The notes: generated by a model not told the origin, from the letters alone. A stretch of 64,000 nucleotides of DNA from a virus (IMGVR_UViG_3300047469_000103:96001-160000); one strand, 5' to 3'; shown: positions 17,935 to 63,352, numbered from the stretch's first letter. Numbers and translations: made by a program.

Positions 17935-17961
17935 AAACTTCCTTTGATCCGTGAGCGTTAG
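17935..17961 (-). promoter_or_regulatory. Conserved leader/RBS box (CTAACG-CTCACG-gatc-AAAGGAAGTTT)
   Basis: Same box at 37150, 58256, 63265. Confidence 0.8.
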
Positions 17962-17990
17962 AATTGCAGGCAGCCGGGGGCCGAAGACGC

Positions 17991-18019
17991 ATCATCGCAT
18001 CCCCGGCCCGTGGTGTCAA
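17991..18019 (-). promoter_or_regulatory. sigma70-like promoter P18.0
   Basis: TTGACA-17 nt-GATGAT. Confidence 0.7.
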
Positions 18020-18038
18020 CCCTAGCGCCCCTTCAAGA

Positions 18039-18497
18039 TCAAGGGGTTACGACAGCATCCAGCAACGGAGCTTTAAGGGCTTTCCGTGCGGCAACCAACG
18101 CATGGGCCAGCACATCGCGTTGAACTGGCGTAAGCAATTCCGCCAGATTCGAATCAATGGGAAACCATTCACGCTTGCGCAATTGGAACTCTTCCCAATC
18201 CACATACGAAAGGAACGAACCGAGGAAATAAATTTCCCGCTGAATGCGTGGCGCGTTGCCTTCGTATTCCGGGTAATGTGCATCCGCATCGAAAATCTTT
18301 TCGCCCACGGTTACAGCGATACCCGCTTCCTCTTTCATTTCCTTGACGGCATTTTCTTCTGGCGTCAAACCTTCTTCCAGACCGCCTTTAGGGAAAACCC
18401 ATTTGCCCGGCAATTTCAGAGAAGTGACCAAAAATACTTTGGACACGTCTTCGTTGAACATTACGATGCCGGAAGTGGTGCGAGTGGCTTGGCTCAT
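18039..18497 (-). CDS. Nudix hydrolase
   Basis: WVFPKGGLEEGLTPEENAVKEMKEEAGI fits the Nudix box GX5EX7(R/K)EUXEEXGU. Confidence 0.9.
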   Translation of the reverse strand: MSQATRTTSGIVMFNEDVSKVFLVTSLKLPGKWVFPKGGLEEGLTPEENAVKEMKEEAGIAVTVGEKIFDADAHYPEYEGNAPRIQREIYFLGSFLSYVDWEEFQLRKREWFPIDSNLAELLTPVQRDVLAHALVAARKALKAPLLDAVVTP

Positions 18498-19294
18498 TTT
18501 TTAGTCTCTGTATTGATTACTTGGAATTCGCAGGAGAATGCGTAAAGTGGTGCGCCCATACTTCCGTCCACGATTAGCATGTCAACGTATTTGCCGTTAA
18601 CGTCGCGGGGCGGAAATGTACGCAAGACAATAAACTCATTGCCTTTGTCGTCTTCGAGGAACGTGCCCTCTTCCAACGTATTTTCATAAGAGCGCAATTG
18701 CTCGAAATTCTTTCGCAGCATCATGCGTGTTGCGCTTTTCGTTTGTTCCGGGTCGATGATGAAATGCGTGCCGTGCCACTGCCGTTTGCATCCGGGGATT
18801 TTGTAGAAAATCAACCCTTCGGCATTCTGTTGCAGGTCGTGAGCTTTCACTACAGAACGAACGCCGTTACGCATTAGCACCGACAGCCATTTAACCGCTT
18901 CCAGTTTGGAGTAGTGGTTAATCCGGCGCACGTCGCGAATATCCAGTTCACCGTAATTCGCCACGTAGATTTCGTTCGGCGCAATGCTGGTAATCAGTTC
19001 ACCGTAATCGTGAGGCAGAATGGAAAAACCGACGACGTTGAATTCAGTTTCGTTTTGATTCGGAACCGGTTTGTTGTAACCGGGGCGCACGCCAGTAATG
19101 ACCATGTGAATATCGTCGATCTTGGCGTGACCGTCGCCCTTGCGCATGCAGATAATTTGCTGCTGCTTCAACAACAGAGATTTAATCTGCTCCATTGTCG
19201 GTTGCATGATCGTTGTTACGATGCTCGGTTTGTTCGTAAAAGGATTCGTGCCGTTGCTGCTACTGGCACTAATGATGCGCATAGTCTCGCTCAT
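18494..19294 (-). CDS. Hypothetical protein (266 aa)
   Basis: ATGA coupling. Confidence 0.8.
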   Translation of the reverse strand: MSETMRIISASSSNGTNPFTNKPSIVTTIMQPTMEQIKSLLLKQQQIICMRKGDGHAKIDDIHMVITGVRPGYNKPVPNQNETEFNVVGFSILPHDYGELITSIAPNEIYVANYGELDIRDVRRINHYSKLEAVKWLSVLMRNGVRSVVKAHDLQQNAEGLIFYKIPGCKRQWHGTHFIIDPEQTKSATRMMLRKNFEQLRSYENTLEEGTFLEDDKGNEFIVLRTFPPRDVNGKYVDMLIVDGSMGAPLYAFSCEFQVINTETKK

Positions 19295-19617
19295 TTTGTG
19301 TCATCCTTTTTCGATGTGCTGTTGTTGATAAACGTGTCCGCTGCTTTCGCGAATGCAGTATCCAGAATGAGGCTGTTAATCAGCGCCGACGTTGCTGGAT
19401 TGCTCATAAGCATTTTTTCGTTTTCTTCGTCGGTGAATTCGTCCCAACCTTTGCCGGTGCGAATTTCCATCGCTTCGATCATGTGGCCGTTAACCTTTAC
19501 ATGGTCGGCCAACGCGGTGCGGTAATCCTGTTCGGTTTCGTCGTGAAAAGCTTTACGGAATTTGTGAATGACGGAAGCGTCTTCTAACGACTTCATATCA
19601 GGAAATGATTGTGGCAT
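19291..19617 (-). CDS. Hypothetical protein (108 aa)
   Basis: GGAGCAACAAAATG leader (same as at 9233). Confidence 0.8.
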   Translation of the reverse strand: MPQSFPDMKSLEDASVIHKFRKAFHDETEQDYRTALADHVKVNGHMIEAMEIRTGKGWDEFTDEENEKMLMSNPATSALINSLILDTAFAKAADTFINNSTSKKDDTK

Positions 19618-19636
19618 TTTGTTGCTCCATAAATAT

Positions 19637-19655
19637 TCCGCTTAGAATGTGCGGA
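19637..19655 (-). promoter_or_regulatory. Intergenic hairpin TCCGC-ACATTCTAA-GCGGA
   Basis: Inverted repeat in spacer; shares CATTCTAA with the 52.5/56.3 kb elements. Confidence 0.45.
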
Positions 19656-19674
19656 GGGGGTTTGTTGCGGGTTG

Positions 19675-20451
19675 TTATGCGTGCCAAACGTCAGCGTCGA
19701 AATTCTGCGCCAACAGATGGCGAACATGCTCAGCCATCCAGACGTTTAAATCGTTATTGTGGAATTCAAAAACTACGTTCAAGCCACGTTCGTATTTGTA
19801 ATTCGCTGGTGTCTGGAAATCGTCAGGTACAGAGAACGTCAGTTTGTGTTCGTAGTCCATCAGCCACTGCGACGGCGCCAGTGCGAACAGGCGAATGTGT
19901 TTACCGGCGTTAAAGATTTTCTCGAAAGCACTGATCGCAATTTCGTTGAAAATTTGCTGACGAACTTTCGCCTCTTCAATTGGGGCGAGATATTCGGCAA
20001 TTGCCAGTCTGTTGTTCTTGTGCCAGCGTTTCATGCTGACGATCATGGAAGCAACTGCGGTCAATTCATACGGACGCTTTTGATACGGCCCGATACCTGC
20101 GGGTAAAAGTGCCACGTCTCTTTGCGGCCCCCAAATTCCCAAATAGGAAATTCCAGCATCGTGCAGAACGTCCCGTTGGTTATCGGTGGCACGGTTCCAC
20201 GTAAAACGATCCATCAGGTGACGGACTGCGTAAATGGTTTGCATGTGGCCGATATTTCGCGTCGTTTGAATTTCGTTGAACGAATCAATAATGCTACGCG
20301 CTTCCCGGTCGGCTTCTCCGCACTTGCTGTCGAAGTTGTAAACCCCATCGACGAAAACTTTCATGCGGTCGGTTGTGTCTGCGAGAGCTTCGTCACGGTC
20401 AAAATAAATCACCGGTTTCGGAAACTCAAGAATCAGATTGGCGTCTCTCAT
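19675..20451 (-). CDS. Hypothetical protein (258 aa)
   Basis: Tiles. Confidence 0.8.
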   Translation of the reverse strand: MRDANLILEFPKPVIYFDRDEALADTTDRMKVFVDGVYNFDSKCGEADREARSIIDSFNEIQTTRNIGHMQTIYAVRHLMDRFTWNRATDNQRDVLHDAGISYLGIWGPQRDVALLPAGIGPYQKRPYELTAVASMIVSMKRWHKNNRLAIAEYLAPIEEAKVRQQIFNEIAISAFEKIFNAGKHIRLFALAPSQWLMDYEHKLTFSVPDDFQTPANYKYERGLNVVFEFHNNDLNVWMAEHVRHLLAQNFDADVWHA

Positions 20452-20828
20452 ATCAGGTTATGCTCTTCTAGCACGCGTATGATTTCTGCGTGTGCTGCCG
20501 TTTGAATTCGCTTGGCACGGCGACTCTTTTTCTCGATGCGCGCCAACTCAAGTTTTTTCTTCATCATGCGATCATGCAAAAGCATTCCGGCAACCCATCC
20601 AGCCCCGGCACCGAACGCACCTAAAAGCATGATGTATGGGTTTTCGCTTTTCGCTGCCTGAATGCTCATGGTCAACGTAACGAGCATTTCCAAAGCACTC
20701 ATAACAGTGCCACCGGTAAACGCCATGCGCTTGTGATTTCCTGCAACGGATTTATTCTGAAACCCGCGAAGAAGCGTCGTCGTGAACAGGACTGCTGCGG
20801 TGCCCAGCACCAATATTAGTTCGTGCAT
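20448..20828 (-). CDS. Three-TM membrane protein (GFQxKxV family), paralogue of 52952..53251
   Basis: LLRGFQNKSV...VMSALEML...GAGAGWVAGMLLHD. Confidence 0.8.
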   Translation of the reverse strand: MHELILVLGTAAVLFTTTLLRGFQNKSVAGNHKRMAFTGGTVMSALEMLVTLTMSIQAAKSENPYIMLLGAFGAGAGWVAGMLLHDRMMKKKLELARIEKKSRRAKRIQTAAHAEIIRVLEEHNLI

Positions 20829-20958
20829 TTAATTCCCCCACTAGGCGATCAAGATTTGCCTTGCTGTCGATTTTTGTTTCGGGTGTAAAGTGAGCGATAA
20901 TCGACAGCGTGGCAATCATGAATAATGCACAGACCATGCTACGATTCCAGCTACGCAT
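20752..20958 (-). CDS. Small membrane/secreted protein (68 aa), tail overlaps next gene
   Basis: Hydrophobic MVCALFMIATLSIIAHF; fills the gap 20829-20950. Confidence 0.55.
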   Translation of the reverse strand: MRSWNRSMVCALFMIATLSIIAHFTPETKIDSKANLDRLVGELNARTNIGAGHRSSPVHDDASSRVSE

Positions 20959-21535
20959 CTTTAAAGCTTACGCTTATGTAATTGAACTGCGTCGGCCCGG
21001 TGAAAGTCATGTCGAGAATAACCGCAATAATTTCACGGTACGCTTGCTTCAGCCACATGTCGTAATCGGTGTACGAACTTTCCAATTCGTTCATCAAATA
21101 ACTACACGCGTTCGACATGAATTCCAGCATCGTGCGAGCTACGTTGTTCGGGTCTTCTTTGGTCGTGACGGTGAACGTGACGTGTTGCATTCCGTCGTAG
21201 AGATAATTCTGTTTTACAGTATTGAACGCGTAGGAGAAAAGACGACCGATTCTTTTCATGTTCGTCGCATGCGCGCTGCGTTCGTCAATGTCCAGCACAC
21301 CCAAATGCTGTTCCTGTGTGGCGCGATGCGTCATCTGCATAATCGCCCCGAATAATTCGAAGCGGAAAAAGTTTGCGACTGCGCCGTCAGGATCGGGCGT
21401 TGGCATATCACGGAAAGCACGCTGCGGGTCTTTGTACTGATTGGCAAGTTCACGCACGAAACAGTTGAAATCAATCGTGACCTTTTTCACACGCGAACAT
21501 GCCGGGCCTTTGAGAATTTCATTTAGCGAAGTCAT
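20951..21535 (-). CDS. Hypothetical protein (194 aa)
   Basis: Tiles. Confidence 0.8.
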   Translation of the reverse strand: MTSLNEILKGPACSRVKKVTIDFNCFVRELANQYKDPQRAFRDMPTPDPDGAVANFFRFELFGAIMQMTHRATQEQHLGVLDIDERSAHATNMKRIGRLFSYAFNTVKQNYLYDGMQHVTFTVTTKEDPNNVARTMLEFMSNACSYLMNELESSYTDYDMWLKQAYREIIAVILDMTFTGPTQFNYISVSFKDA

Positions 21536-21807
21536 TGCGCGACCATCCCTTTGTGCTTAACCAGCATGGTATCGGGAATGCACTGGAACTGACGATAGCC
21601 GTCAATGATCCAGCACGTCGCGTTCATTTCGTCGTCGTGGAAACGTTCGATTCGACTGTTCGAAGTTTTACCGATTTGCACGGCGATAACTTTTTCACTG
21701 GTGGGCGTAGTGTTTCGCATGGCATTGGTAGCAGCGGATTCGCCTGTGTTGAAGTCGCCGCAACCGGCCAGCAATGCAAAAGCAATCAAAACAATTTTAG
21801 TTTTCAT
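21532..21807 (-). CDS. Lipoprotein (91 aa)
   Basis: MKTKIVLIAFALLAGC lipobox; C-terminal RFHD.E...TCW...C. Confidence 0.85.
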   Translation of the reverse strand: MKTKIVLIAFALLAGCGDFNTGESAATNAMRNTTPTSEKVIAVQIGKTSNSRIERFHDDEMNATCWIIDGYRQFQCIPDTMLVKHKGMVAQ

Positions 21808-22252
21808 CTTTGACTTCCTGTGCTTTTTCAAGAATACCTTTTTCGATAGCGTCCATGTAGGCGTCAACACTATCTGCGAACGAATGCGCTTCGGCCTGTG
21901 ACGTAAACGTGGTGGCAAAGGCCAATCCCCATTCACGCGTGGAGTCGATGCTAATTGATTTCGGGATCAGACGGACATAGTGAAAACCCATGTCGAAAAA
22001 TACCCAAGTCCATTTGCTGTTCGGTCGGCTGCTTTCGTATTTCGGCGTACCCGGAACACGCGAATTGTCACCTTCCAATCCAAGCTGCTTTTTCTGACGA
22101 TCACCCATTTCAGTAAGGGCAATTCGGTACTCAGTTATTTCGGTCGCGCAAACGATTCTGTTGCAACACTCGCTGATAAAATGCGGGACTGTATAATTCT
22201 GCAATTTCTGGTTGCAGTACGGGCAGTGGAACTCGGCTGGCTGTGCGAACAT
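21797..22252 (-). CDS. Zn-ribbon protein (CPYC...CC)
   Basis: Cys motifs at N-terminus. Confidence 0.75.
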   Translation of the reverse strand: MFAQPAEFHCPYCNQKLQNYTVPHFISECCNRIVCATEITEYRIALTEMGDRQKKQLGLEGDNSRVPGTPKYESSRPNSKWTWVFFDMGFHYVRLIPKSISIDSTREWGLAFATTFTSQAEAHSFADSVDAYMDAIEKGILEKAQEVKDEN

Positions 22253-22382
22253 TATTTTCTCTCACTGTCAGATTATTGCCTGCGCCGCAATTCCAGCAGC
22301 GCAGTTCAACATTAGAGGTGGTGTAAAGCATGAGCATTTCCGGGGAACAACTCAGGCGTCTATTACATTGCTTGCAGTTCAA
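22131..22382 (-). CDS. Zn-ribbon protein (CKQC...CWNC), long tail overlapping next gene
   Basis: Two CxxC; ATGA coupling to upstream gene. Confidence 0.65.
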   Translation of the reverse strand: MNCKQCNRRLSCSPEMLMLYTTSNVELRCWNCGAGNNLTVRENNVRTASRVPLPVLQPEIAELYSPAFYQRVLQQNRLRDRNN

Positions 22383-22738
22383 TCTTTCACACGGAACCTT
22401 AGCTCGAAAATCCAGAATTTCCGTACAGTGTATTTAGGTGGCGGCGGCAAAGCTTTTTCGGGAGGGATTTCAATTCCAGATTCCACGACAGCCTTATTGA
22501 AACGGGCCAGCGCATCTGTGCCAAATCCAGCAATGGCATTTTCGAGAAGTTCGATTTTTTCTTTGTGTTGTAGAAGTGCAGTCGTACATTCTGCGAAGCT
22601 GTTCAACCGCGTGCGTCCGCGACAACCACGAGGCAACTGGCCCTGCAATTCGCACAGGCGCAAATACAACGTGTGTTCCCTTGAGGCCGCTGCTTCTACG
22701 AACTTGCGTGCATCCGCCAAACTGGCCGCTTCTTTCAT
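22379..22738 (-). CDS. Hypothetical protein (119 aa)
   Basis: Tiles. Confidence 0.75.
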   Translation of the reverse strand: MKEAASLADARKFVEAAASREHTLYLRLCELQGQLPRGCRGRTRLNSFAECTTALLQHKEKIELLENAIAGFGTDALARFNKAVVESGIEIPPEKALPPPPKYTVRKFWIFELRFRVKD

Positions 22739-23235
22739 TGTGCAATCCCATTCTTTTCGAGTGCATCAACGACCAGCGTATGCAGGCCCGGTTCACTTTG
22801 CAGGAAATCTAAACCTTTGTGAGTGAAGAACATCCGCTCGTGGTCGGTCGGCTGCACACTGGCGTTCGTGTGCAAAACAAACACGATGTAAACTTTTCCG
22901 TTTTCACGCATCAATTTACCGCAGGGGATGAAATCCACAAACGGCAGTTCTTCGCGAATTGGAATTTCCAACAACAATCGGAATTTGTGTGCGTCATCAA
23001 CTTTGATGTGGTGTTGCTTCAACAGGTGCGAGTAGCTGAACCAATGTTGCCCGGCTGGTTTGCGACGGAACGAAAAGCTTTTGAAAACAGCATCCGCATT
23101 TGTCACGCCTTCCAGTAGCAAGAAAGGCTCGGTTGCGTCACGGTCGTGAATGTTTTGACGGTAATCCAAACCCGCAATGTGCAGACCGCTTTCGAGCCTT
23201 GTTACTTGGACAATGATTGCGCCAGAAATTTCCAT
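22735..23235 (-). CDS. Hypothetical protein (166 aa)
   Basis: Tiles. Confidence 0.8.
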   Translation of the reverse strand: MEISGAIIVQVTRLESGLHIAGLDYRQNIHDRDATEPFLLLEGVTNADAVFKSFSFRRKPAGQHWFSYSHLLKQHHIKVDDAHKFRLLLEIPIREELPFVDFIPCGKLMRENGKVYIVFVLHTNASVQPTDHERMFFTHKGLDFLQSEPGLHTLVVDALEKNGIAQ

Positions 23236-23249
23236 TTTTATTTACTCGA

Positions 23250-23570
23250 TTACTTGATGATGTATTTGGCCGCGATGGAGTGGGCCGTTTTGAGGGTGTC
23301 GGTGAAATCAAAACTCGGTTGCTGCTTGCGCTCTGAGTCACGCGCCATTTCAATTTCTTGCAGCATGTGCTGTATCTCTTTGTCCAGTTCCTTGACGTTC
23401 TTCATTCCCTCTTCAACAGACCAGAAATTGTAATACCAATCTCCCGTTGCGCCGAGGCGATCCGCATATCCGCCAATCTCTGCGCGGAGATTACAAAGCC
23501 CTTCCAGATGGAAACGCATGGATGTGCAAATATCATTTAATTCCGTGAGTGCTTCTTCCTTGGTTTTCAA
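23250..23570 (-). CDS. Hypothetical helical protein (106 aa; TTG start)
   Basis: TTGA overlap with upstream stop. Confidence 0.7.
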   Translation of the reverse strand: MKTKEEALTELNDICTSMRFHLEGLCNLRAEIGGYADRLGATGDWYYNFWSVEEGMKNVKELDKEIQHMLQEIEMARDSERKQQPSFDFTDTLKTAHSIAAKYIIK

Positions 23571-23875
23571 TCCGTTTCTTCCTCTTCTTCTTCTTCGTCT
23601 GACGGCAGGTCAAACTCTTCTGCAAACTCTTCCAGAATAGACATGGCCCGACGTTCCTTCGCATCATACAAACGTGCGTCCGTATCGCGAATTGCTGCGA
23701 CGGTTTTCTGTGCATGCGAAAGGCATGTGACCAGCGACGGTTCGTCTTCCAGCGACGTAGGGTAGAAGCGTTTGATTTTCTTCCTTGAGTCCAGCGCCTG
23801 CAATTCGTCTTCACGCTCTTTCAGCTTGAGCGCTAGATGGGTGCAGATAAATACAGCGCGAGAAATAACACTCAT
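23567..23875 (-). CDS. Hypothetical protein (102 aa), acidic tail
   Basis: Start set at 23875 (AGGA upstream). Confidence 0.7.
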   Translation of the reverse strand: MSVISRAVFICTHLALKLKEREDELQALDSRKKIKRFYPTSLEDEPSLVTCLSHAQKTVAAIRDTDARLYDAKERRAMSILEEFAEEFDLPSDEEEEEEETD

Positions 23876-23879
23876 GTTT

Positions 23880-24508: not shown

Positions 24509-24514
24509 TTACAG

Positions 24515-25341: not shown

Positions 25342-25344
25342 TTC

Positions 25345-36293: not shown

Positions 36294-36590
36294 TTAAACC
36301 GGGTACGACATACAAACGACAGCAAGACGTTTGCGTTTCAAATGCTGAATACTGCCGTGGCCGTCCACAATAACGAAAGGCACATCGGTACAGGCTTCGA
36401 TGCGATCAATGAGAGATTGCACCGTCGCGCTGTTATTCAGCGAGCGTTCCCAAATGTACGGTTTGCATTTGGTCGATGCTGGCGCACGGAAAACAATGCG
36501 CAGACATTCCTGTTCGTACACGGCCATTTCGATCAGGCCGAGTTCGCTGGTCAGTTCGTGCAATTCCGGTGCTGGCTTTTTATCGCTCAT
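36294..36590 (-). CDS. Hypothetical protein (98 aa)
   Basis: ATGA coupling. Confidence 0.75.
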   Translation of the reverse strand: MSDKKPAPELHELTSELGLIEMAVYEQECLRIVFRAPASTKCKPYIWERSLNNSATVQSLIDRIEACTDVPFVIVDGHGSIQHLKRKRLAVVCMSYPV

Positions 36591-37144
36591 TTGCGGTTCG
36601 CCTCGTTCTTGTCCAGATTTGCAGCGTTGCGAATCAGCATATTACCGGAATGACCACGGACGGTTTCCATTTCGGTCTGGCGGTAAATGTAGATACACAG
36701 GTCGCAAAGCTTTTTACCGGTGATAAGCATGTGGCTGATATCCTCGACGAATTTATCACGCGTCAGGGTATGGAAACGATGTTCTGCTTCAGCCGGTTCA
36801 CTTTTCACGGCCAGCGTAACGCCGATGGTATCGAAAATCAGTTTCTCGAAATCCGCCGTTGTGATCGTCCAGCTATTCGGAATGATCGACGGTTTGTCGT
36901 CTACAGGTTTCGGTGCTTTTCCACCTTCCAGCCATTTGCCGGTTTCGATCAACTGTTCGATTCCGTCAAACCACGCATTGAGCTTTTTGTCTTCGTCGTC
37001 GAGCGACACTTCGACTTTGCCTTCTGCGAAAACGGTGCCGTGACAGCAAACGTTATTCAGCGCGATTGCAAAACGATGCGGCCCAACTTCTTTAATCAAC
37101 GCCGACAGAACGGATTCAGTTACAGCGTTCGCTTTAGTGCCCAT
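36587..37144 (-). CDS. Hypothetical protein (185 aa); first gene after P37.2
   Basis: Conserved leader box upstream. Confidence 0.85.
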   Translation of the reverse strand: MGTKANAVTESVLSALIKEVGPHRFAIALNNVCCHGTVFAEGKVEVSLDDEDKKLNAWFDGIEQLIETGKWLEGGKAPKPVDDKPSIIPNSWTITTADFEKLIFDTIGVTLAVKSEPAEAEHRFHTLTRDKFVEDISHMLITGKKLCDLCIYIYRQTEMETVRGHSGNMLIRNAANLDKNEANRK

Positions 37145-37149: not shown

Positions 37150-37170
37150 AAACTTCCTTTAAAGCGTGAG
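37150..37170 (-). promoter_or_regulatory. Conserved leader/RBS box (CTCACG-cttt-AAAGGAAGTTT)
   Basis: Seen directly. Confidence 0.8.
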
Positions 37171-37204
37171 TGTTGTAGTAGCGGCCAATCAAAGACCAGC
37201 CGCC

Positions 37205-37233
37205 ACAATACCATTCGTCGCCCTACCAGTCAA
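37205..37233 (-). promoter_or_regulatory. sigma70-like promoter P37.2
   Basis: TTGACT-17 nt-TATTGT with TG extended -10. Confidence 0.8.
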
Positions 37234-52152: not shown

Positions 52153-52153
52153 T

Positions 52154-52450: not shown

Positions 52451-52475
52451 GAGTTTTTCTCCGGTCTGATTTCAC

Positions 52476-52503
52476 TCCAAAGCGCACTCGTGAGAATGCG
52501 CAG
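52476..52503 (-). repeat. Conserved intergenic hairpin, TCAC loop (copy 1 of 3)
   Basis: Minus strand CTGCGCATTC-TCAC-GAGTGCGCTTTGGA. Confidence 0.85.
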
Positions 52504-52508
52504 GAAAG

Positions 52509-52619
52509 TTAATCGTCTTCGCCCGTGTCTGGAATGTCACCGCTTTCGTCTTGTTCGCAGTCTTCGCATTCAACTTCTTCGCGGTCTATTCCGTGTGGAC
52601 ACCAAATCGAATCTTCCAT
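52509..52619 (-). CDS. Acidic Cys/His microprotein (36 aa), one CxHG..CxxC repeat; not in ORF track
   Basis: MEDSIWCPHGIDREEVECEDCEQDESGDIPDTGEDD; GAGGA RBS. Confidence 0.75.
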   Translation of the reverse strand: MEDSIWCPHGIDREEVECEDCEQDESGDIPDTGEDD

Positions 52620-52629
52620 CTTTTATTCC

Positions 52630-54710: not shown

Positions 54711-54741
54711 TGCGTAAACCTCGTAGGGACGTTTCAGTAAT

Positions 54742-54769
54742 TCCAAAGCGCACTCTTTCGAATGCGCAG
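54742..54769 (-). repeat. Conserved intergenic hairpin, GAAA loop (copy 2 of 3)
   Basis: Minus strand CTGCGCATTC-GAAA-GAGTGCGCTTTGGA. Confidence 0.85.
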
Positions 54770-54782
54770 AAGAATTAAAGAA

Positions 54783-56206: not shown

Positions 56207-56247
56207 TTTGTACTTCCTTTTTGATGAATTCGGATTTTACTCGGCTA

Positions 56248-56268
56248 CGCACTCGTTAGAATGCGCAG
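56248..56268 (-). repeat. Conserved intergenic hairpin, TAAC loop (copy 3 of 3)
   Basis: Minus strand CTGCGCATTC-TAAC-GAGTGCG. Confidence 0.85.
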
Positions 56269-56278
56269 CGATAGTGGG

Positions 56279-56811: not shown

Positions 56812-57503
56812 TCAGACGGTTCCTGCGATTCGACGAATTCGTAAGTTTCGACATTCCGTTCGATGGTGAAATCTGCACCGAATTGATCGTCGAATACTTG
56901 ACCGATTTTAAACGCAGCGGCCAACTCACTATCGGCGTGAATTTGATGCGTTACACACACCAGCTTTTCGCCTTCAGGTTTAAACGTCAGGTCGAAAGCG
57001 TAATTCATGCCTTCGGTTTGTGCGACTTGAGCATTCGCCCAATCGAGCGCGTCATTCCACGACGTTTGCAGCAGCAGATAAACCGGCATCTGATAATCAA
57101 CCGGAACCACTGTGCAAGTTGCTTGAAAGATATTCAGCTTTTGGAATTTGCTGAAATCAATGTGCGTGGAAATATTCAGCGGCTGTTCGGCGGCAATTTC
57201 CGCATCGCTGTAATATACGAAACCACGACCACGACGGCGCACGTTTTTCAGTACGCCTTCAAATTCACCGAAGGTACGGAACCGGCCATCTTTGTAGCAC
57301 TTGATAACCTGCTGTTGCTTTCCGTCAATGGTGATATTGCGGCCCATCACTTCCGAAGCCATAACCATCGGGCGATTGATTTGTTGCGGTGCAACTTCTT
57401 CAGCGGCTTTTACAGCGGCATCGCTGGCTTCTTTGTCGTAGCTTGCTTCGTGCGCTTTCGCAGCGGCCAGAACGAACACAGCCAGTTGGTTTTGCGATTT
57501 CAT
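56808..57503 (-). CDS. Mosaic hypothetical protein (231 aa)
   Basis: GAGG RBS. Confidence 0.8.
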   Translation of the reverse strand: MKSQNQLAVFVLAAAKAHEASYDKEASDAAVKAAEEVAPQQINRPMVMASEVMGRNITIDGKQQQVIKCYKDGRFRTFGEFEGVLKNVRRRGRGFVYYSDAEIAAEQPLNISTHIDFSKFQKLNIFQATCTVVPVDYQMPVYLLLQTSWNDALDWANAQVAQTEGMNYAFDLTFKPEGEKLVCVTHQIHADSELAAAFKIGQVFDDQFGADFTIERNVETYEFVESQEPSE

Positions 57504-57541
57504 GATGTAGCCTCTTTCGGTCGATTTGGTTTACTACTGAC

Positions 57542-57563
57542 AAAACCCGCACGAGGCGGGTTT
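57542..57563 (-). terminator. Intrinsic terminator
   Basis: AAACCCGC-CTCGT-GCGGGTTTT on minus strand. Confidence 0.75.
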
Positions 57564-57574
57564 GTTTTCAGCGG

Positions 57575-57727
57575 TTACGTCGAGAGCGAGTCGATTAGTT
57601 CGTCCTCTTCCTCCCAACAGGAAATGTGAAGGGCTTCACCAAACGGGCCACGCTCGTTAGTGATTCCGCCACAATTACGGCAGCGGGATTCCCCATCATC
57701 AGGAATTTCTACGCGTTCGCTATCCAT
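57575..57727 (-). CDS. Acidic Zn-binding microprotein (50 aa), not in ORF track
   Basis: MDSERVEIPDDGESRCRNCGGITNERGPFGEALHISCWEEEDELIDSLST; GGAGG RBS. Confidence 0.75.
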   Translation of the reverse strand: MDSERVEIPDDGESRCRNCGGITNERGPFGEALHISCWEEEDELIDSLST

Positions 57728-58012
57728 TTAAATTTCCTCCGAGCGGTCTTCGATGAATTGTTGGCCGTCAAAATCGCACGGCATGAAACGATCAGTGCCG
57801 GGAACGCGTTTCTGAATCCGCGTAGGTTCGATTTCGTAAATGAAATCACCATCGCGCAATTCGATGCGGCACCACGGGTACGACTTGTGTTCGTCGAAAG
57901 AAGCCATCGCCTCTTCCAGCGTTTCGAACGAATCGCAGAACTTGCAATTCTCTTCGGTCATGCCGTCAGTGGTTTCGTACTTACCGGCTGCAACGCTGAA
58001 TTTCATGCTCAT
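57728..58012 (-). CDS. Hypothetical acidic protein (94 aa)
   Basis: Start 58012 (GAGGA RBS). Confidence 0.8.
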   Translation of the reverse strand: MSMKFSVAAGKYETTDGMTEENCKFCDSFETLEEAMASFDEHKSYPWCRIELRDGDFIYEIEPTRIQKRVPGTDRFMPCDFDGQQFIEDRSEEI

Positions 58013-58039
58013 GTTTATTTCCTCGTGGGGGCTTATTTC

Positions 58040-58063
58040 AAAAACCCGCAAGGGCGCGGGTTT
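58040..58063 (-). terminator. Intrinsic terminator
   Basis: AAACCCGC-GCCCTT-GCGGGTTTTT on minus strand; same stem as 57542. Confidence 0.8.
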
Positions 58064-58078
58064 ATTCGAAAGGGGATT

Positions 58079-58252
58079 TTATTTGCGTGGCGTAGTCACA
58101 AACGACTGCGCGATTTCTTCCAGTTGCTCAGCGCTAAGTTTCGGCGCGTCCGGGTAATACGTGTTCATTGCTGTTTCGTATTCCTCGCGGGTTATTAATC
58201 CGCTTGCTGCCAGTTCGTTGTATTCGTTTACCGGTAGCTCTTTAACGATCAT
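58079..58252 (-). CDS. Acidic microprotein (57 aa), first gene after P58.3; not in ORF track
   Basis: MIVKELPVNEYNELAASGLITREEYETAMNTYYPDAPKLSAEQLEEIAQSFVTTPRK; leader box upstream. Confidence 0.8.
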   Translation of the reverse strand: MIVKELPVNEYNELAASGLITREEYETAMNTYYPDAPKLSAEQLEEIAQSFVTTPRK

Positions 58253-58255
58253 CGC

Positions 58256-58276
58256 AAACTTCCTTTAATCCGTTAG
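58256..58276 (-). promoter_or_regulatory. Conserved leader/RBS box (CTAACG-gatt-AAAGGAAGTTT)
   Basis: Seen directly; leader also has hairpin CGGGCA-AGCCG-TGCCCG at 58288-58304. Confidence 0.8.
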
Positions 58277-58314
58277 GGTCGGAATCTCGGGCACGGCTTG
58301 CCCGTGTGACTTTC

Positions 58315-58342
58315 ATTGTACCTAAACGGCAAAAGGAATCAA
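58315..58342 (-). promoter_or_regulatory. sigma70-like promoter P58.3
   Basis: TTGATT-16 nt-TACAAT. Confidence 0.7.
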
Positions 58343-58620
58343 GCCCCCGTGTAACCTTCGATAACCGCCCCGTGCCAGTAGCGCCCGGTCAATAGCCAAC
58401 GCGTGTTGTCCGTGGCCCCTGTAGCGATGTGCAGCGCCTTTGCCTCTTCTTCTGTTAGAGGTTCTGACGCCTTGCCTTGCAAAAGGCGCTCGTGCGCTTT
58501 CTGTAGAACTTCATAGGCGCGTTTGTAACCGTCGCGTTTCAGTTCCCGGCGAATCTGCGCAAATCGTGTTGCGCTGCAATCGCCTACAATTCTGTTTCCT
58601 TGCCGCAGTCGAATTCTCAT
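58339..58620 (-). CDS. Hypothetical protein (93 aa)
   Basis: ATGA coupling. Confidence 0.8.
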   Translation of the reverse strand: MRIRLRQGNRIVGDCSATRFAQIRRELKRDGYKRAYEVLQKAHERLLQGKASEPLTEEEAKALHIATGATDNTRWLLTGRYWHGAVIEGYTGA

Positions 58621-59366
58621 GTCACCGATTCCATGTAGGTTTTGAAATCCCGCACATTTGGACTGGCGGGGAAAATAACAAAGTCATCCGATTCCTGAGA
58701 CTTGTTAAACGTGCCACTGAAATAAACGCCGTTCACTGTCGATAGGTCTTCGATGGTTGTGTTCGGCGTGCGCACCAAAATGAATTCCACGACCGGCGCG
58801 TAATGTTGCAGCGTGCATTGCAGAACGTGTAAATCGAAACCGACCATACATTCTACTTCGTGCGTCATGCGATCCAGCGTGAGGCATTTATGTTTCTTGC
58901 CGCGCCATTCGAAAACGCCCAGTCGCAGAATTAATTCCGCGTTGCAGTTTAAACCGGCTGGTAAATCATCCGTCGCCGGTTCGTTACGTTCCATTTTCAA
59001 ACGCATGGAAATGCTTTGCTTCTGAATGCCGTAAGCCAGCATTGTCAGCCACGGAATATTTCCCGTGATCGTGTTGTAAAACTGCGCGTCTGCAAAATCG
59101 AAATACACAACGTCGCTCACTGGCATTTTGTGTTGTGTATGTTTCCACACTGCCAACGCAAGATGCTTCGGTAAACGTAACGCCGTAGTCCAGCGACTAA
59201 CGCCGTGCAAACCAGCGCCGTACAGAATCGCGAAACCGCACGCCAGCACCAACAACACGCGGCCAATAAATGGCAGCACGTATTTAACAATGAGAAACGC
59301 GAATGCCAGAACTAGAAACGCAGTGATCCACGAATTAAGCTGGATGCTGGAAATGGTATTAAACAT
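58617..59366 (-). CDS. Membrane protein (249 aa)
   Basis: Two N-terminal TMs; GAGGT RBS. Confidence 0.8.
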   Translation of the reverse strand: MFNTISSIQLNSWITAFLVLAFAFLIVKYVLPFIGRVLLVLACGFAILYGAGLHGVSRWTTALRLPKHLALAVWKHTQHKMPVSDVVYFDFADAQFYNTITGNIPWLTMLAYGIQKQSISMRLKMERNEPATDDLPAGLNCNAELILRLGVFEWRGKKHKCLTLDRMTHEVECMVGFDLHVLQCTLQHYAPVVEFILVRTPNTTIEDLSTVNGVYFSGTFNKSQESDDFVIFPASPNVRDFKTYMESVT

Positions 59367-60042
59367 TTTTGTACCTCACTTGATCCTTGAGAAATTCGTC
59401 GTGGGTAATTGTCAGGCGAACCAGTGAAGCGGAACGGTCGTCTTTACCCACACCCGGAATTACCAGCGACGTTTTTACGTGCGTGTATTTGTGCTGCAAA
59501 ATCTGGCGGGCGAATTCCGCCGCTTCAGCACACGTCGTTTTAAAATCGTCTTCGTGCATGTCGAAATGCGGCATGGCGATAATGTCGATGTACTCGGCGC
59601 CGGTCGTGTGGTGATCCGTATAAACGATGTTGTCACCGTCCCACGCTTTCGGCCACAGACTGCCATTCGTGCGCACGTATCCAATTGACACGCCCGTATC
59701 TTGGCGACCGGGAGACGTGAATTCGAAGTCACCATAAAACACCGAAGTGCAGCGGTGAATTTCCAGCAGCTTTTCGCCCGGTTCGATTGGCGCCGGTTCG
59801 TGCTGGATTAATGGGAATTCAATAATGTTGCGCGTCAAATCTTGCGCAAGACAGAAACCTTGAAACAGGGTATCGAGACGCACGCCCGAATAACCGGATT
59901 CGGTACGCATGTCGGCGTAGACTTCGATGGCGCGGCAATTTAATTTGCTCATGGCCTTTTCGAATTTCTCACGATCCAACGCGAAATTCACTTTGCGCTG
60001 GTCTTCGGAGAGTTTGAATTTCGGAGGGAAAGAAATATTCAT
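59359..60042 (-). CDS. Hypothetical protein (227 aa)
   Basis: ATGA coupling. Confidence 0.8.
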   Translation of the reverse strand: MNISFPPKFKLSEDQRKVNFALDREKFEKAMSKLNCRAIEVYADMRTESGYSGVRLDTLFQGFCLAQDLTRNIIEFPLIQHEPAPIEPGEKLLEIHRCTSVFYGDFEFTSPGRQDTGVSIGYVRTNGSLWPKAWDGDNIVYTDHHTTGAEYIDIIAMPHFDMHEDDFKTTCAEAAEFARQILQHKYTHVKTSLVIPGVGKDDRSASLVRLTITHDEFLKDQVRYKNV

Positions 60043-60335
60043 TCGCGGTCTTCCTTGAAATCGTTTTTGTGACGGCGCTTGTATTCACCATAACCGCGAC
60101 TGCAATTTGCGATTATGTCTTCGTACCGGCCAATGGGATATGCGTCTGCCATTTCTGGCGGCATTTCGTATTCCTTCGCATACGCTTTTGCATTCTCTTC
60201 AGTGTCGAAGAAAATATGCACGCTGCGAGCGTTGGTGTAATCGTAGCCACCGGGGATATACCAGCGGCTGACGACGAATTTCGATGTGGGTTTTCTGTAC
60301 AGCGTGCCTTCGTGTTCCGTGGTGTACAGATTCAT
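60039..60335 (-). CDS. Hypothetical protein (98 aa)
   Basis: Tiles. Confidence 0.8.
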   Translation of the reverse strand: MNLYTTEHEGTLYRKPTSKFVVSRWYIPGGYDYTNARSVHIFFDTEENAKAYAKEYEMPPEMADAYPIGRYEDIIANCSRGYGEYKRRHKNDFKEDRE

Positions 60336-60337
60336 TT

Positions 60338-61063
60338 TTAAACCCCCAGCACTTTACGTTGGCGTGGAGTGAGTGCAGCGAGCGCTTCGGCCTTTTCTTT
60401 TTTCGCCTTGGCATCTTTGCGCTCTTTCGCTTTGCGTGCCTTGTCGGCTTTCTCGTGCGTTTCCCACCACGCGGCAACGTCACGCATGCGCGCATCTTTT
60501 GCATCGCTGTACAGCAATTTGTCGCGCTCTGCTTTTGGCAACGCGGTAATGATCGCGCACAGTTCGGTTTCGCAGCGTTCGTCCGAAGCGTAAATGTTTT
60601 TCTCTTCACGCTTGAGCCACGCAGGCACCGTCATTTCCAGACGCTTGCGTACAACGATTTGGTAACGCGCAGCATCGCGCAGTTTGATTTCTTTTTGGGT
60701 CGGTTCCATATGATCGCAATTGCAAGGCATGATTTTTCCCTCACGGACATTATTAACAAAAGTGACGACCGCGTTTTCGATAATGCGCAACGGGTCTTGT
60801 GTGTGCGTGCCTTCGTTCCAGATTTCAGGCGTACACGAAACTTCGAAATTAAATTCCACGCCCCGGCGTAGAAATCCAGTTACGCGGTTTGGGTTTCGGC
60901 GTTCGTGCGAATCCGTCATCCATTCCCACCGCCAGCCAATCGGCAATTCTGGCAATCGGAATTCGTATTTCTTGGGAATCTCTTTTCCCGTGACTGGCAC
61001 CTTTCCGCGCCAGCCGTAACGACCGTTCTTTAATCCGGTCGTCCATGCTTTTAGTGCGCCCAT
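60338..61063 (-). CDS. Hypothetical protein (241 aa), basic C-terminus
   Basis: GGAG RBS; PCNCDHMEP, CETELC. Confidence 0.8.
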   Translation of the reverse strand: MGALKAWTTGLKNGRYGWRGKVPVTGKEIPKKYEFRLPELPIGWRWEWMTDSHERRNPNRVTGFLRRGVEFNFEVSCTPEIWNEGTHTQDPLRIIENAVVTFVNNVREGKIMPCNCDHMEPTQKEIKLRDAARYQIVVRKRLEMTVPAWLKREEKNIYASDERCETELCAIITALPKAERDKLLYSDAKDARMRDVAAWWETHEKADKARKAKERKDAKAKKEKAEALAALTPRQRKVLGV

Positions 61064-61066
61064 GAA

Positions 61067-61327
61067 TTACTCCACAAACCACTCTTTGCCGTTCAACCAC
61101 ACGGCGCCTTTTTCTTCCAGCGTCTTTGCCATTTCGTCAGTAACGATGCAAAGTGTCGCTGGCCCTTCGACCGTGCTGTATTCAGCGTAAGAACCAGCGG
61201 CTTTAATTTCTGCGGCCTTCGCGTTGAACTGTTCTTTGGTTTTCGCCACCAAATAACCGTCGTGGCGATTTCCCCAACCAGCTTCATATTCACGGACGCT
61301 GTTGAAATACGCTACGTTCTGAGACAT
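61067..61327 (-). CDS. Conserved small phage protein (EYExGWG..DG motif)
   Basis: VREYEAGWGNRHDGYLV; AAGGA RBS. Confidence 0.8.
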   Translation of the reverse strand: MSQNVAYFNSVREYEAGWGNRHDGYLVAKTKEQFNAKAAEIKAAGSYAEYSTVEGPATLCIVTDEMAKTLEEKGAVWLNGKEWFVE

Positions 61328-61362
61328 ACAATTTTCCTTCTATTATGTTTCCTAGCATCCCA

Positions 61363-61386
61363 TTGCCTACCAACACGGATAGGCAA
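61363..61386 (-). promoter_or_regulatory. Intergenic hairpin TTGCCTA-N10-TAGGCAA
   Basis: 7-bp perfect inverted repeat in a spacer; no U-tract. Confidence 0.45.
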
Positions 61387-61401
61387 GTGGATAACGTCGG
61401 A

Positions 61402-61650
61402 TTAAAAATTTACATGCAGCGTGTGACTGATGAAAGAATAATTACCCGGCATCACGTCAGGATCAAGATTCAATTCGTCCGGGTCTACGTCCGGGTTGTA
61501 GATCATGGTTTCCGCCGAGAAATAAACCGGCGCCCACCAATCGTACAAATCGAAACAGGCGCAGTAGGTCATTTGGTCAGGCCCGCTATCAACGTCGAGA
61601 AACGCAGTAACAGCACCATTGCGACCATGCTTCACTTCGAAATTAAACAT
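61402..61650 (-). CDS. Hypothetical acidic protein (82 aa)
   Basis: GGGAG RBS. Confidence 0.8.
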   Translation of the reverse strand: MFNFEVKHGRNGAVTAFLDVDSGPDQMTYCACFDLYDWWAPVYFSAETMIYNPDVDPDELNLDPDVMPGNYSFISHTLHVNF

Positions 61651-61816
61651 CGTTCAAACTCCCTTTAGGCTTGAGCATGCGCGCCTTGCGCATGTACTCG
61701 TTTCGGTCTGCCAAGTATTCGGCAGCGGCCATAGTAAACCCGGCGTGTTTTGCTTTCAAGTAATACGTGTTCGCGTACCGGGCTTGATGCACGAGCCACC
61801 ACAGCGATTCGCTCAT
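61643..61816 (-). CDS. Microprotein (57 aa), not in ORF track
   Basis: MSESLWWLVHQARYANTYYLKAKHAGFTMAAAEYLADRNEYMRKARMLKPKGSLNDV; ATGA overlap. Confidence 0.75.
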   Translation of the reverse strand: MSESLWWLVHQARYANTYYLKAKHAGFTMAAAEYLADRNEYMRKARMLKPKGSLNDV

Positions 61817-62220
61817 ATGTCGTCTTCCATTGCTTGTTTGCGTTTGGCTTCGCGTTCCGCTCTACATTGAGCGTTGTAGATTTTCGAAGCCTTGCGATTA
61901 TATTCCTTCTTGAAATGCCAGCCGAAAATTCCGTACCAGCTAGACATATTGTTCGAAGTGCTTTGCATGCTGTTGCCGATGAACAGAAGCGGTTCAACAA
62001 AAATTGCACGCAGGATTTTAAGTGCGATGTGGCCCCAGTGCGCGCCACCTTTGTAATACAGCACGGCGTTATAAAGGCCGTAGCTCCAGCCGCGCAAAAG
62101 TGGGCGAGCAAGAAAACCGATGATAACCGGCGTCACGCAAAACCCGACGATCATGCAAGCGTATGCGTAAATCTGCACAGCCTTGGGCATGCCCATTAAT
62201 GTTGTGAAAATGGTTTCCAT
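61813..62220 (-). CDS. Membrane protein (135 aa)
   Basis: GAGG RBS; TM near N-terminus. Confidence 0.8.
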   Translation of the reverse strand: METIFTTLMGMPKAVQIYAYACMIVGFCVTPVIIGFLARPLLRGWSYGLYNAVLYYKGGAHWGHIALKILRAIFVEPLLFIGNSMQSTSNNMSSWYGIFGWHFKKEYNRKASKIYNAQCRAEREAKRKQAMEDDI

Positions 62221-62229
62221 GTTGCCTCC

Positions 62230-62502
62230 TTAACTGCGTGCGTCTTCGTGCAGCAGTTTCAATTCCTGCAATTTATCCGACAGTTCAATAAAGCCGTTGC
62301 CGGTGTGAACTTCGGTGCCGGTTGCAGTGACCATGTTCAACGTGAAGAATTCACGATCTGCAATTACGAGCGAGCCAACGAAAAACTCGTTGCGGTCAAC
62401 CTTGCGCGAAATGTTGTAAACCGCGCAACCGAGATAGCTGGCCGACGAAATGTTGATGTTAGGAGCGAACAGAGCTTTGACTGTGTTTCGTGAATGCAGC
62501 AT
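62230..62502 (-). CDS. Hypothetical protein (90 aa)
   Basis: GGAG RBS. Confidence 0.8.
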   Translation of the reverse strand: MLHSRNTVKALFAPNINISSASYLGCAVYNISRKVDRNEFFVGSLVIADREFFTLNMVTATGTEVHTGNGFIELSDKLQELKLLHEDARS

Positions 62503-62516
62503 GGTATTTCTCCGAA

Positions 62517-62657
62517 TTAGATTTTGGTGGCGCCGCGTGGTTTAGGTGCGTTCTTTTTACTGCGGTATTCCATGTAGCAGATTGCGAACATGATCGCAGC
62601 AACACCAGCCAGTACGGCGATTTCTTTTACGTGGCCGATTACGGTTACTTCGTACAT
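62517..62657 (-). CDS. Single-TM microprotein (46 aa), not in ORF track
   Basis: MYEVTVIGHVKEIAVLAGVAAIMFAICYMEYRSKKNAPKPRGATKI; fills gap. Confidence 0.7.
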   Translation of the reverse strand: MYEVTVIGHVKEIAVLAGVAAIMFAICYMEYRSKKNAPKPRGATKI

Positions 62658-62686
62658 TTTAAAACTCACTTCTTGAAAAAAGTTGA

Positions 62687-63103
62687 TTAGCAGATTTTGT
62701 AAGTGCCGGATTTCAGCAGGTCACGCATCACGTCGCGGGTCATCATTGCAGGGCCGTTTTCGTCACTGCGCAGATGCTGTACATAGTCGCCGTAATCAGG
62801 CCCGTGCATGATTACGAATTCAATGCTGTACGGTTCCGTGTTCGGGTCTGGATACTCCGCTTTGTGTTCCTTTCGGATTTTATCACAATGCGCGTTGTAG
62901 CCTTCCACGTCGGCGCCGATGTTCGTCAGATACACGAACGCCTTTTTGCCTTCTTCAGAAAGCATGCTGGTTTGTGATGCCAGCGTGTCGAAATGAAACG
63001 TCATACCAACGTCACCAATTCGCACCGTATCGCCTTCGCGCAATTCACCAATTAAATCTGGTGAAGCGGCAAGGTCGAGTACCATTCCTTTTAGCAGTGT
63101 CAT
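62687..63103 (-). CDS. Hypothetical protein (138 aa)
   Basis: Start 63103 (GAGGT RBS). Confidence 0.8.
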   Translation of the reverse strand: MTLLKGMVLDLAASPDLIGELREGDTVRIGDVGMTFHFDTLASQTSMLSEEGKKAFVYLTNIGADVEGYNAHCDKIRKEHKAEYPDPNTEPYSIEFVIMHGPDYGDYVQHLRSDENGPAMMTRDVMRDLLKSGTYKIC

Positions 63104-63114
63104 TTTATTGCACC

Positions 63115-63261
63115 TCAAACATTTTTACGGAAACGACGTTGAGCGTCCTGCAATTCTTTGGCGCGGTTTTCTTCAGCGGCAACTTGCTCGCTGTTCCACT
63201 GCCAAGTTTTGCGAGGCGAGTTCGAAACGGTAGTGCGGGATTGGACATTGAATGCGCGCAT
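63115..63261 (-). CDS. Microprotein (48 aa), first gene after P63.3; not in ORF track
   Basis: MRAFNVQSRTTVSNSPRKTWQWNSEQVAAEENRAKELQDAQRRFRKNV; leader box upstream. Confidence 0.8.
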   Translation of the reverse strand: MRAFNVQSRTTVSNSPRKTWQWNSEQVAAEENRAKELQDAQRRFRKNV

Positions 63262-63264
63262 TGG

Positions 63265-63285
63265 AAACTTCCTTTAAGGCGTGAG
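63265..63285 (-). promoter_or_regulatory. Conserved leader/RBS box (CTCACG-cctt-AAAGGAAGTTT)
   Basis: Seen directly; a second CTAACG at 63302-63307. Confidence 0.8.
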
Positions 63286-63323
63286 TTAAGAATCTATCAG
63301 GCGTTAGTGCCGATCTGGAATCA

Positions 63324-63352
63324 ATAGTGCCCGAATGCCAATAGGAAGTCAA
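63324..63352 (-). promoter_or_regulatory. sigma70-like promoter P63.3
   Basis: TTGACT-17 nt-CACTAT. Confidence 0.65.

Follow-up and report, generated by a model that had tools for sequence, protein, structure and literature searches.

What is the function of a short sequence that stands at the head of several phage operons, contains a Shine-Dalgarno (SD) core and extends well beyond it? This question is raised by a 64,000-nucleotide (nt) stretch of viral DNA, IMGVR_UViG_3300047469_000103:96001-160000, which was analysed over its whole length and is called the window in the following. Four sigma70-type promoters of the window each lead into the same 21-nt leader box of the form CTMACG-N4-AAAGGAAGTTT (CTMACGNNNNAAAGGAAGTTT). 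The box belongs to a cassette of promoter, 5' stem-loop, box and, in most copies, a start codon, which is conserved among related phages and restricted to early promoters. The reading that we favour, at a probability of about 0.42, is that the box serves as a shared RNA operator, through which one sequence-specific factor would handle whole early transcripts.

The box pattern has four exact matches in the window, all on the minus strand, which is the coding strand (coordinates in Table 1), against none in 100 dinucleotide-preserving shuffles of the window, and a search that tolerated up to three mismatches added no further site (0.47 expected). A profile that was built from 28 copies of other phages only retrieved precisely the same four sites (E-values 1.6e-6 to 4e-4, with the next match at 0.19) and none at an internal gene of the window. 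The initial annotation of this DNA, which had described the box at four promoter-proximal sites and at no internal gene, is thereby confirmed in both respects. The CTMACG hexamer by itself is not enriched, as the minus strand has 29 occurrences and the plus strand 16, with about 31 expected for each. The four -35/-10 promoters lie where they had been placed, and the reported spacing of 3-5 nt between box and ATG was found at every site (4, 5, 3 and 3 nt in cassettes 1-4). A fixed distance between promoter and box was likewise observed, but the range of 35-60 nt given before is in fact tighter, as the end of the -10 hexamer precedes the box by 35, 34, 38 and 38 nt, respectively. The window contains roughly 130-140 plausible genes, all on the minus strand and tightly packed, and each box lies within one of the few real intergenic gaps, with operons of 5-21 kb behind the cassettes. 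Genes other than the boxed ones mostly possess GGAG, GAGG or AGGA as their SD sequence.

Protein searches revealed similarity of the encoded proteins to those of the Pseudomonas phages Lu11 and HRDY3 and, more distantly, of PaBG, and a megablast search of the window against phage records gave no match. On the basis of these protein similarities, the window is the early-gene region of a Lu11-like jumbo phage. To our knowledge, Lu11-like phages, whose genomes comprise about 300 kb, do not have an RNA polymerase of their own. The IMG/VR contig G001 (312,325 bp, with terminal repeats) is collinear with the window at a patchy nucleotide identity of 65-90%. The group has been described as carrying phage sigma-factor genes in the paper on PaBG (PMC7412058).

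Copies of the box were found in several of these relatives. With up to three mismatches, 12 copies were detected in G001 (reversed-pattern control: 1 forward, 1 reverse), and with at most one mismatch 9 copies in HRDY3 and 8 in Lu11, where the reversed pattern gave 0 in either genome. A pattern search found no box in PaBG, and the few pattern matches in Dickeya AD1 and Erwinia Y3 all occur without promoter and ATG. Scanning IMG/VR with a stricter 16-base box returned 23 stretches in 15 contigs, most of which are about 300 kb long; profile searches of the flanks of these stretches yielded further copies that were not chosen by pattern, and three more cassettes are located on a Logan contig from the lineage of the window (L061) that reaches 10 kb past the window end. 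The total is 58 distinct box copies from at least 15 genomes or contigs, including Lu11, HRDY3 and G001, and every copy is oriented in the same way with respect to transcription. A TTGAC-type promoter is present at 57 of the 58 copies, with the -10 hexamer ending 33-39 nt before the box in 55 of these, and an ATG follows 0-6 nt after the box in 50/58. As predicted for all four window sites and for the 57 copies, the promoters of the family follow the scheme TTGAC/TTGAT, N16-18, nAnnnT, many of them with a TGn extended -10. Given these promoters and the fixed distances from -10 to box and from box to ATG, the unit from -35 to ATG is a fixed geometry. When crude intergenic regions of G001 were examined for enriched k-mers, the late promoter emerged and the box did not, as spurious open reading frames (ORFs) masked the cassettes, and a scan for promoter plus hairpin that demanded perfect stems was too strict. 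In the GenBank record of Lu11, two of the cassettes are annotated as 'promoter, similar to TTGACA(N15-17)TATAAT', with hairpin and box unannotated, and the literature that we searched holds no description of this leader.

The family consensus of the cassette is the promoter, a GC stem-loop, aCACTCAC(G/A)-N4-WRRG(G/T)AAGTTT and the ATG. Conservation also includes letters outside the search pattern, namely the CA that immediately precedes the box (aCACTCAC) and, at a distance of about 10 nt upstream, the arms GGGCA / TGCCCG of the hairpin. In seven orthologous pairs, which were defined by synteny and by similarity of the first gene, the 17 box letters are 90% identical (107/119), whereas identity is 54% in the N4, 48% in the 12 nt upstream of the box, 48% in the 3 nt after it and about 38% in the promoter spacer. 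As the box letters are thus preserved within near-random surroundings, the box is held by selection and not by recent copying, and these alignments indicate that it is under strong purifying selection in the relatives. The motif scan and the check for conservation in relatives that had been suggested with the initial annotation have hence been carried out, with 58 copies and this 90% identity as their outcome. Among close relatives of cassette 4, differences are confined to variable positions. A second CTAACG at 17956 and 63302, to which attention had also been drawn, is present in the respective leaders, but it is not kept in the orthologous cassettes of G001. Within the box, the letters T2, A4, C5, G14, A16, G18, T19 and T20, which are part of TCAC and AAGTT, are invariant in 58/58 copies, while positions 11-13 and 15 of the SD core are variable (AAAGG, TAGGG, AGAGG, AAGGT), and the earlier view that the box goes beyond an SD sequence was therefore justified.

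Eight of the 58 boxes have no ATG within 6 nt and are still found at the promoter-fixed position. At three orthologous loci in G001, HRDY3 and Lu11, the box stands ahead of about 190 nt of additional leader, after which come a second box in decayed form, an ordinary GGAG site and a conserved gene. In the window's lineage (L061, 6153), about 95 nt separate an intact box from the start of a gene encoding 492 amino acids (aa), the ATG of which is preceded by a second hairpin and a decayed box. In the start-codon-less boxes, the SD core reads GGT in 4/8 cases versus 2/50 in the others (Fisher p 0.002, which is overstated as the copies are related), and TCAC and AAGTT are intact. The variable SD core, the invariant flanks and the eight boxes without start codon together mean that the box does not serve as a ribosome site only and that it is linked to the transcript's 5' end. 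This suggests that CUCAC and AAGUUU are recognised by another partner, either in place of the initiating ribosome or in addition to it. A genome-specific homogenisation of the SD half was considered, as the window copies all have AAAGG, but was rejected, since the three cassettes of the same lineage past the window end have AAGGG, AGGGT and AAGGAAC. A structured leader of about 250 nt with an intact box first and a decayed second box last is located in G001 at 238,905-236,803 on the minus strand (L008/L025), in HRDY3 at about 148,490 and in Lu11 at about 117,400. It has no match in Rfam, and the gene behind it encodes a conserved 613-aa protein that is composed of about five repeated modules of small size, of linkers rich in Lys and Ala and of an extended acidic segment.

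According to predicted folds, each window leader can form a stem-loop between promoter and box that starts a few nt after the expected start site, and the box region is mostly unpaired in these predictions (mean unpaired probability 0.4-0.8). The predicted structure of the leaders is dominated by the 5' hairpin, with a mean free energy (dG) of -10.3 kcal/mol and a z-score (z) below -1.5 in 16/32 of them. Its loops vary between copies, and orthologous cassettes keep lineage-specific hairpins; the HRDY3 orthologue of cassette 2 has another hairpin sequence at the equivalent place, and the TCGGCA..TGCC hairpin of cassette 4 recurs in four G001 cassettes. A pseudoknot or switch between NGUG in the hairpin loop and CACN of the box would be possible in about 14/32 copies, but was not supported, no covariation being visible since the box side is invariant. 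Neither was a small ACU/AGU helix closing the box, which appears in some minimum free energy folds and comprises 3-4 bp only. A variant of the cassette is found in HRDY3 at 282,093 (L044 1501-1575) and in an IMG/VR phage (L068 5583), where the box half AAGGGAAGU pairs with a downstream ACUUCCCUU that is followed by a U-run. This terminator-like hairpin lies directly behind the promoter, in a cassette that is orthologous to window cassette 3 at the head of the 58.2-kb operon. The hairpin is a candidate attenuator or a candidate small RNA of about 75 nt, and anything bound to the box would consequently block it.

We propose that the four window sites are copies of the early-transcription cassette of a Lu11-like clade that would use the host RNA polymerase. 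A sigma70 promoter with TTGACA, often with an extended -10, would produce a transcript that starts with the GC stem-loop GGGCA-N4-6-TGCCCG, continues with 8-12 unpaired nt ending in ACA and then presents the box CUCAC(G/A)-N4-WRRG(G/U)AAGUUU at about +28 to +52, usually 3-5 nt ahead of the start codon. The box would be an RNA element that is fixed at the 5' end of every early transcript, and its purine core may double as the ribosome site of the first cistron. CUCAC and AAGUUU, the invariant flanks, would form one operator for all early operons, of which the hairpin is probably also a part. We infer that this operator acts as RNA and that it is bound by a trans-acting factor, which is likely an early phage protein. 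Because the box keeps its promoter-fixed place also without a start codon, control of the whole transcript is favoured over a RegA-type repression of one cistron. Two forms of such control would fit, as the leader could be cut or occluded to end early expression, or the factor could load onto the transcription complex. The operator would account for the invariant flanks, for the promoter-fixed position without ATG and for the attenuator variant.

Several points weigh against a common operator. The profiles of RegB, RegA, CsrA, NusG and S1 found nothing in G001, HRDY3 and Lu11, and that of S21 gave only a sub-threshold match, in G001, so that a candidate factor was not obtained in this way. The earlier proposal that the box is the site of one RNA-binding protein is accordingly retained in part, as the box reaches beyond an SD sequence, is promoter-proximal only and is conserved, but no protein candidate emerged from the five profiles. 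The cassette must also work without a phage factor, because early transcripts precede any phage protein. The 3' half of the box is largely explained by the ribosome alone, because UAAGGAAGU agrees at 8/9 positions with UAAGGAGGU, the sequence fully complementary to the 3' end of the 16S rRNA (textbook anti-SD), at an ATG spacing that is suitable in 50/58 copies. Since the box itself was the query by which most copies were detected, the 58/58 invariance is partly built in, and the mismatch-tolerant searches and the profile search are the cleaner controls for conservation. The hairpin is kept mainly as sequence, and its covariation is weak (63% of cells paired versus 59% in shuffled alignments, with 33/500 shuffles reaching the observed score). 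Rfam gave no match for the window at gathering scores and none for five cassette loci at E <=1. Finally, a fifth, decayed cassette of the window (Table 1), which was missed in the initial annotation and has a weaker promoter, demonstrates that a promoter can persist without an intact box; its positional counterpart is the intact cassette at G001 55117. The sole window gene with a regulatory hint encodes a 493-aa protein (15083-16564, minus strand) with weak matches to HTH_3 (E 6e-4) and to the transcriptional regulator phrog_8 (E 4e-3).

In comparison with described systems, the element appears to be a novel, clade-wide early promoter-leader cassette with a bipartite RNA box, which fails the defining sequence features of known phage sites. 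It resembles the RegB and RegA systems of T4, in which a phage signal lies over early-gene ribosome sites and one temporal class of mRNA is treated alike. RegB cuts GGAG, whereas the box contains GGAAG, GGGAAG or GGTAAG and never GGAG; the RegB family PF10715 found nothing in G001, HRDY3 and Lu11, in a search in which the control genomes gave no match either. The AU-rich sites of RegA overlap the AUG of numerous internal genes, whereas the box is confined to promoter-proximal leaders and does not reach the ATG, and the RegA family PF01818 found nothing in the same three genomes. In contrast to both T4 systems, the box is also kept without a start codon. An identity with the CsrA/RsmA site, which is (A/U)CANGGANG(U/A) with GGA in every site, was rejected as well: of the first 32 boxes, only 13 contain CACGGA, and the SD half reads GGU in six boxes. 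A CsrA gene was not found in G001, HRDY3 and Lu11. The sequence UCACGGAU resembles the RsmE site of hcnA.

Nearly as likely as a common operator is a leader that works in cis only, in which the 5' stem-loop and the ribosome docking near the 5' end would cause strong translation of the first cistron and shield the long mRNAs from RNase E and Rho, with the host 30S subunit as the only ligand. Such a leader would be functional at time zero, before any phage protein, and long operons of 5-21 kb indeed lie behind the cassettes. It would also explain the 8/9 complementarity of UAAGGAAGU to the anti-SD with the ATG 0-6 nt after the box in 50/58 copies, and a box that is predicted to be unpaired behind a 5'-terminal hairpin. 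According to a review (PMC7509114), stem-loops at the 5' end and bound ribosomes are obstacles to RNase E, which scans transcripts from that end, and this agrees with a protective role. The combination of a 5' stem-loop with an SD-like sequence close to the 5' end, which in some copies lies at a great distance from a start codon, is reminiscent of STAB-SD elements (cryIIIA) and of 5' stem-loops as in ompA. However, stabilisers of the STAB-SD type need only a good SD sequence or a hairpin, whereas in the cassette the SD core varies and it is CUCAC and AAGUUU that are invariant over at least 15 genomes or contigs. The STAB-SD layout is realised in eight copies, and precisely in these boxes without start codon, where docking of the 30S subunit would be the sole job, the core is weakest (GGU). 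Known ribosome features do not explain an invariant CUCAC 8 nt upstream of the SD, and AGUUU fits the RNase E preference RN↓WUU, which would be odd for a stabiliser. That the cassettes are recombination linkers, with the box kept by gene conversion and by hitch-hiking with promoter and ribosome site, is unlikely. This idea has a precedent in the PeSLs of T4-type phages, repeated cassettes of sigma70 promoter and stem-loop at the borders of early modules that mediate such shuffling (Arbiol et al. 2010, PMC2839356), and the cassettes resemble them, as they lie at the borders of small early modules, often behind a terminator hairpin (some have upstream terminator-like hairpins), within a shuffled gene order. 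The early gene order of the window's lineage (L061 1-10000) is strongly scrambled relative to G001 (43-57 kb), with the module of the small basic protein in another operon and cassettes at the module borders. In PeSLs, however, conservation extends across the promoter, and the stem-loop in front of it is a terminator, whereas the conserved block of the cassette is located downstream of the promoter, in the transcript, and is position-specific rather than tract-wise. Conversion tracts would not skip 4 nt, yet the N4, the spacer and the 12 nt upstream are at about 50% identity versus 90% for the box letters, and the lineage-specific hairpins of orthologous cassettes argue against homogenisation. 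A variant of this idea, a DNA operator for a repressor or roadblock downstream of the promoter, is doubtful too, since the site is asymmetric, always has one orientation and includes the SD, which points to RNA.

It is also improbable that hairpin and box act in the manner of the lambda nut site (boxA plus boxB, with N protein) and load an antitermination factor on the host RNA polymerase for terminator read-through. The resemblance lies in a strictly promoter-proximal hairpin and linear box, fixed at +28 to +52, at the head of long early operons, and in a tiny, very basic protein that is encoded first behind one cassette copy. This arginine-rich 48-aa protein (pI 11.3, WQW motif, RRFRK tail), which follows cassette 4 and would be the candidate factor, is the product of the first gene after a cassette in the window as well as in G001, HRDY3 and several IMG/VR contigs, and it is also present in Lu11. 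No family of Pfam or PHROGs includes it. All box-bearing lineages that were examined encode it first behind a cassette, and it was not found in PaBG and Y3, but a protein of 48 aa can easily escape detection in distant phages, so that its co-occurrence with the box counts as weak evidence. A canonical intrinsic terminator (AAACCCGC-CUCGU-GCGGGUUUUG, 57563-57541, minus strand) is situated 750 nt behind the 58.3-kb promoter, and in the approximately 12 kb that follow it no promoter is recognisable, either of this class or of the middle/late class described below. This arrangement would fit antitermination, as would the terminator-forming variant of HRDY3 and one IMG/VR phage. On the other hand, a boxA-like sequence CGCTCTTTA is absent from all aligned leaders, and there is no conserved boxB-type loop, as the hairpin is found in most copies with variable loops. 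Unlike nut sites, the box overlaps the ribosome site and includes an SD at a rigid ATG spacing, and a NusG-like gene was not found in G001, HRDY3 and Lu11. It is equally improbable that the 48-aa protein constitutes a new N-like system of jumbo phages, in which it would bind hairpin and box on every early transcript and switch the host RNA polymerase or the fate of the transcript; if true, the terminator-forming variant of HRDY3-like phages would be a factor-controlled attenuator.

A common operator thus remains our preferred reading, and the cassette is of relevance also beyond this question. One 45-nt leader that is common to every early operon and conserved in at least 15 genomes or contigs is a concrete experimental handle and marks early transcription units, and it predicts either one common regulator or one common RNA-protection device. 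Lu11-like phages possess tens of kb of uncharacterised early genes, the timing of which needs explaining, and Lu11 and Pseudomonas putida are a cultivable pair. If a factor binds the box, this would be a new phage system for the class-wide control of early mRNA. If there is none, the cassette would be a compact and portable expression module for Pseudomonas, consisting of a 5' hairpin and a ribosome-docking box.

Table 1. Features of the four leader cassettes and of the decayed fifth cassette in the window
Feature	Description	Positions	Strand	Basis or remark
Cassette 1 promoter	TTGACA-N17-GATGAT, TGc extended -10	17991..18019	minus	sequence
Cassette 1 5' stem-loop	weak; CGGCC-CCC-GGCTG	17966..17990	minus	predicted fold, dG -7.4, z -0.7
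Cassette 1 leader box	CTCACGgatcAAAGGAAGTTT	17935..17955	minus	pattern and profile match
Cassette 1 first gene	88 aa, hydrophobic, MGTMKRT...	17664..17930	minus	orthologues behind box in HRDY3 and Lu11
Cassette 2 promoter	TTGACT-N17-TATTGT, TGg extended -10	37205..37233	minus	sequence
Cassette 2 5' stem-loop	GGCGGCTGGTC-TTT-GATTGGCCGCT	37180..37204	minus	predicted fold, dG -15.5, z -3.7
Cassette 2 leader box	CTCACGctttAAAGGAAGTTT	37150..37170	minus	pattern and profile match
Cassette 2 first gene	185 aa, MGTKAN...	36587..37144	minus	orthologues behind box in G001 and HRDY3
Cassette 3 promoter	TTGATT-N16-TACAAT	58315..58342	minus	sequence
Cassette 3 5' stem-loop	core CGGGCA-AGCCG-TGCCCG	58283..58311	minus	predicted fold, dG -11.4; fits family consensus GGGCA-N4-6-TGCCCG
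Cassette 3 leader box	CTAACGgattAAAGGAAGTTT	58256..58276	minus	pattern and profile match
Cassette 3 first gene	57 aa	58079..58252	minus	with next ORF corresponds to one 155-aa HRDY3 gene
Cassette 4 promoter	TTGACT-N17-CACTAT	63324..63352	minus	G001 orthologue TTGACG-N17-CATAGT
Cassette 4 5' stem-loop	ATCGGC-ACTAAC-GCCTGAT, about +10 to +28 of predicted transcript	63296..63314	minus	predicted fold
Cassette 4 leader box	CTCACGccttAAAGGAAGTTT	63265..63285	minus	G001 orthologue: box letters 17/17 identical, N4 1/4
Cassette 4 first gene	48 aa, pI 11.3, MRAFN...KTWQWNS...AQRRFRKNV	63115..63261	minus	ORF, homologues
Fifth, decayed cassette	TTGAAA-N17-TACTAT, hairpin GCTGCC..GGCAG, CTCAAG-CCT-AAAGGGAGTTT-gaacgATG	61656..61759	minus	5 nt before ATG at 61650

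Searches of Pfam and PHROGs with the first genes behind the cassettes gave nothing informative. The first ORF behind cassette 3 and the following one (57728-58051, minus strand, 107 aa) jointly match the single HRDY3 gene listed in Table 1, which indicates that the gene is either split here or fused there.

Apart from the cassettes, the window contains three intergenic hairpins on the minus strand (52476-52512, 54742-54778 and 56241-56277) of the form GCGCAUUC-(UCAC, GAAA or UAAC)-GAGUGCG(C/U), which have identical stems and flanks, differ only in the tetraloop and lack a U-tract; this family was not found in G001. In the initial annotation, the CTMACG hexamer had been recognised in the hairpins at 52.5 and 56.3 kb. 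The loops C(UCAC)G and C(UAAC)G are real, but a relation to the box is not supported, given the loop C(GAAA)G of the third copy at 54.7 kb, the lack of this family in G001 and a hexamer frequency that shows no enrichment. The simplest reading of these sequences is that the family represents interchangeable stable tetraloops and not a shared protein site.

In the Lu11 record, sigma70-like promoters are labelled 'early', and the designation 'middle/late' is given to a separate motif, aAACTGTAAAT, which is the second promoter class of the window. A relation of the box to this promoter was considered, as one Lu11 site reads CTGTAAATAGGAAGT, but was rejected, since the consensus of 25 sites is aAACTGTAAAT only, with nothing conserved after it. 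Six exact copies are found on the coding strand of the window (45809, 26157, 24515, 24495, 9280 and 1466), two of which are arranged in tandem, 20 nt apart, at 24.5 kb, and G001 contains 19 exact copies.

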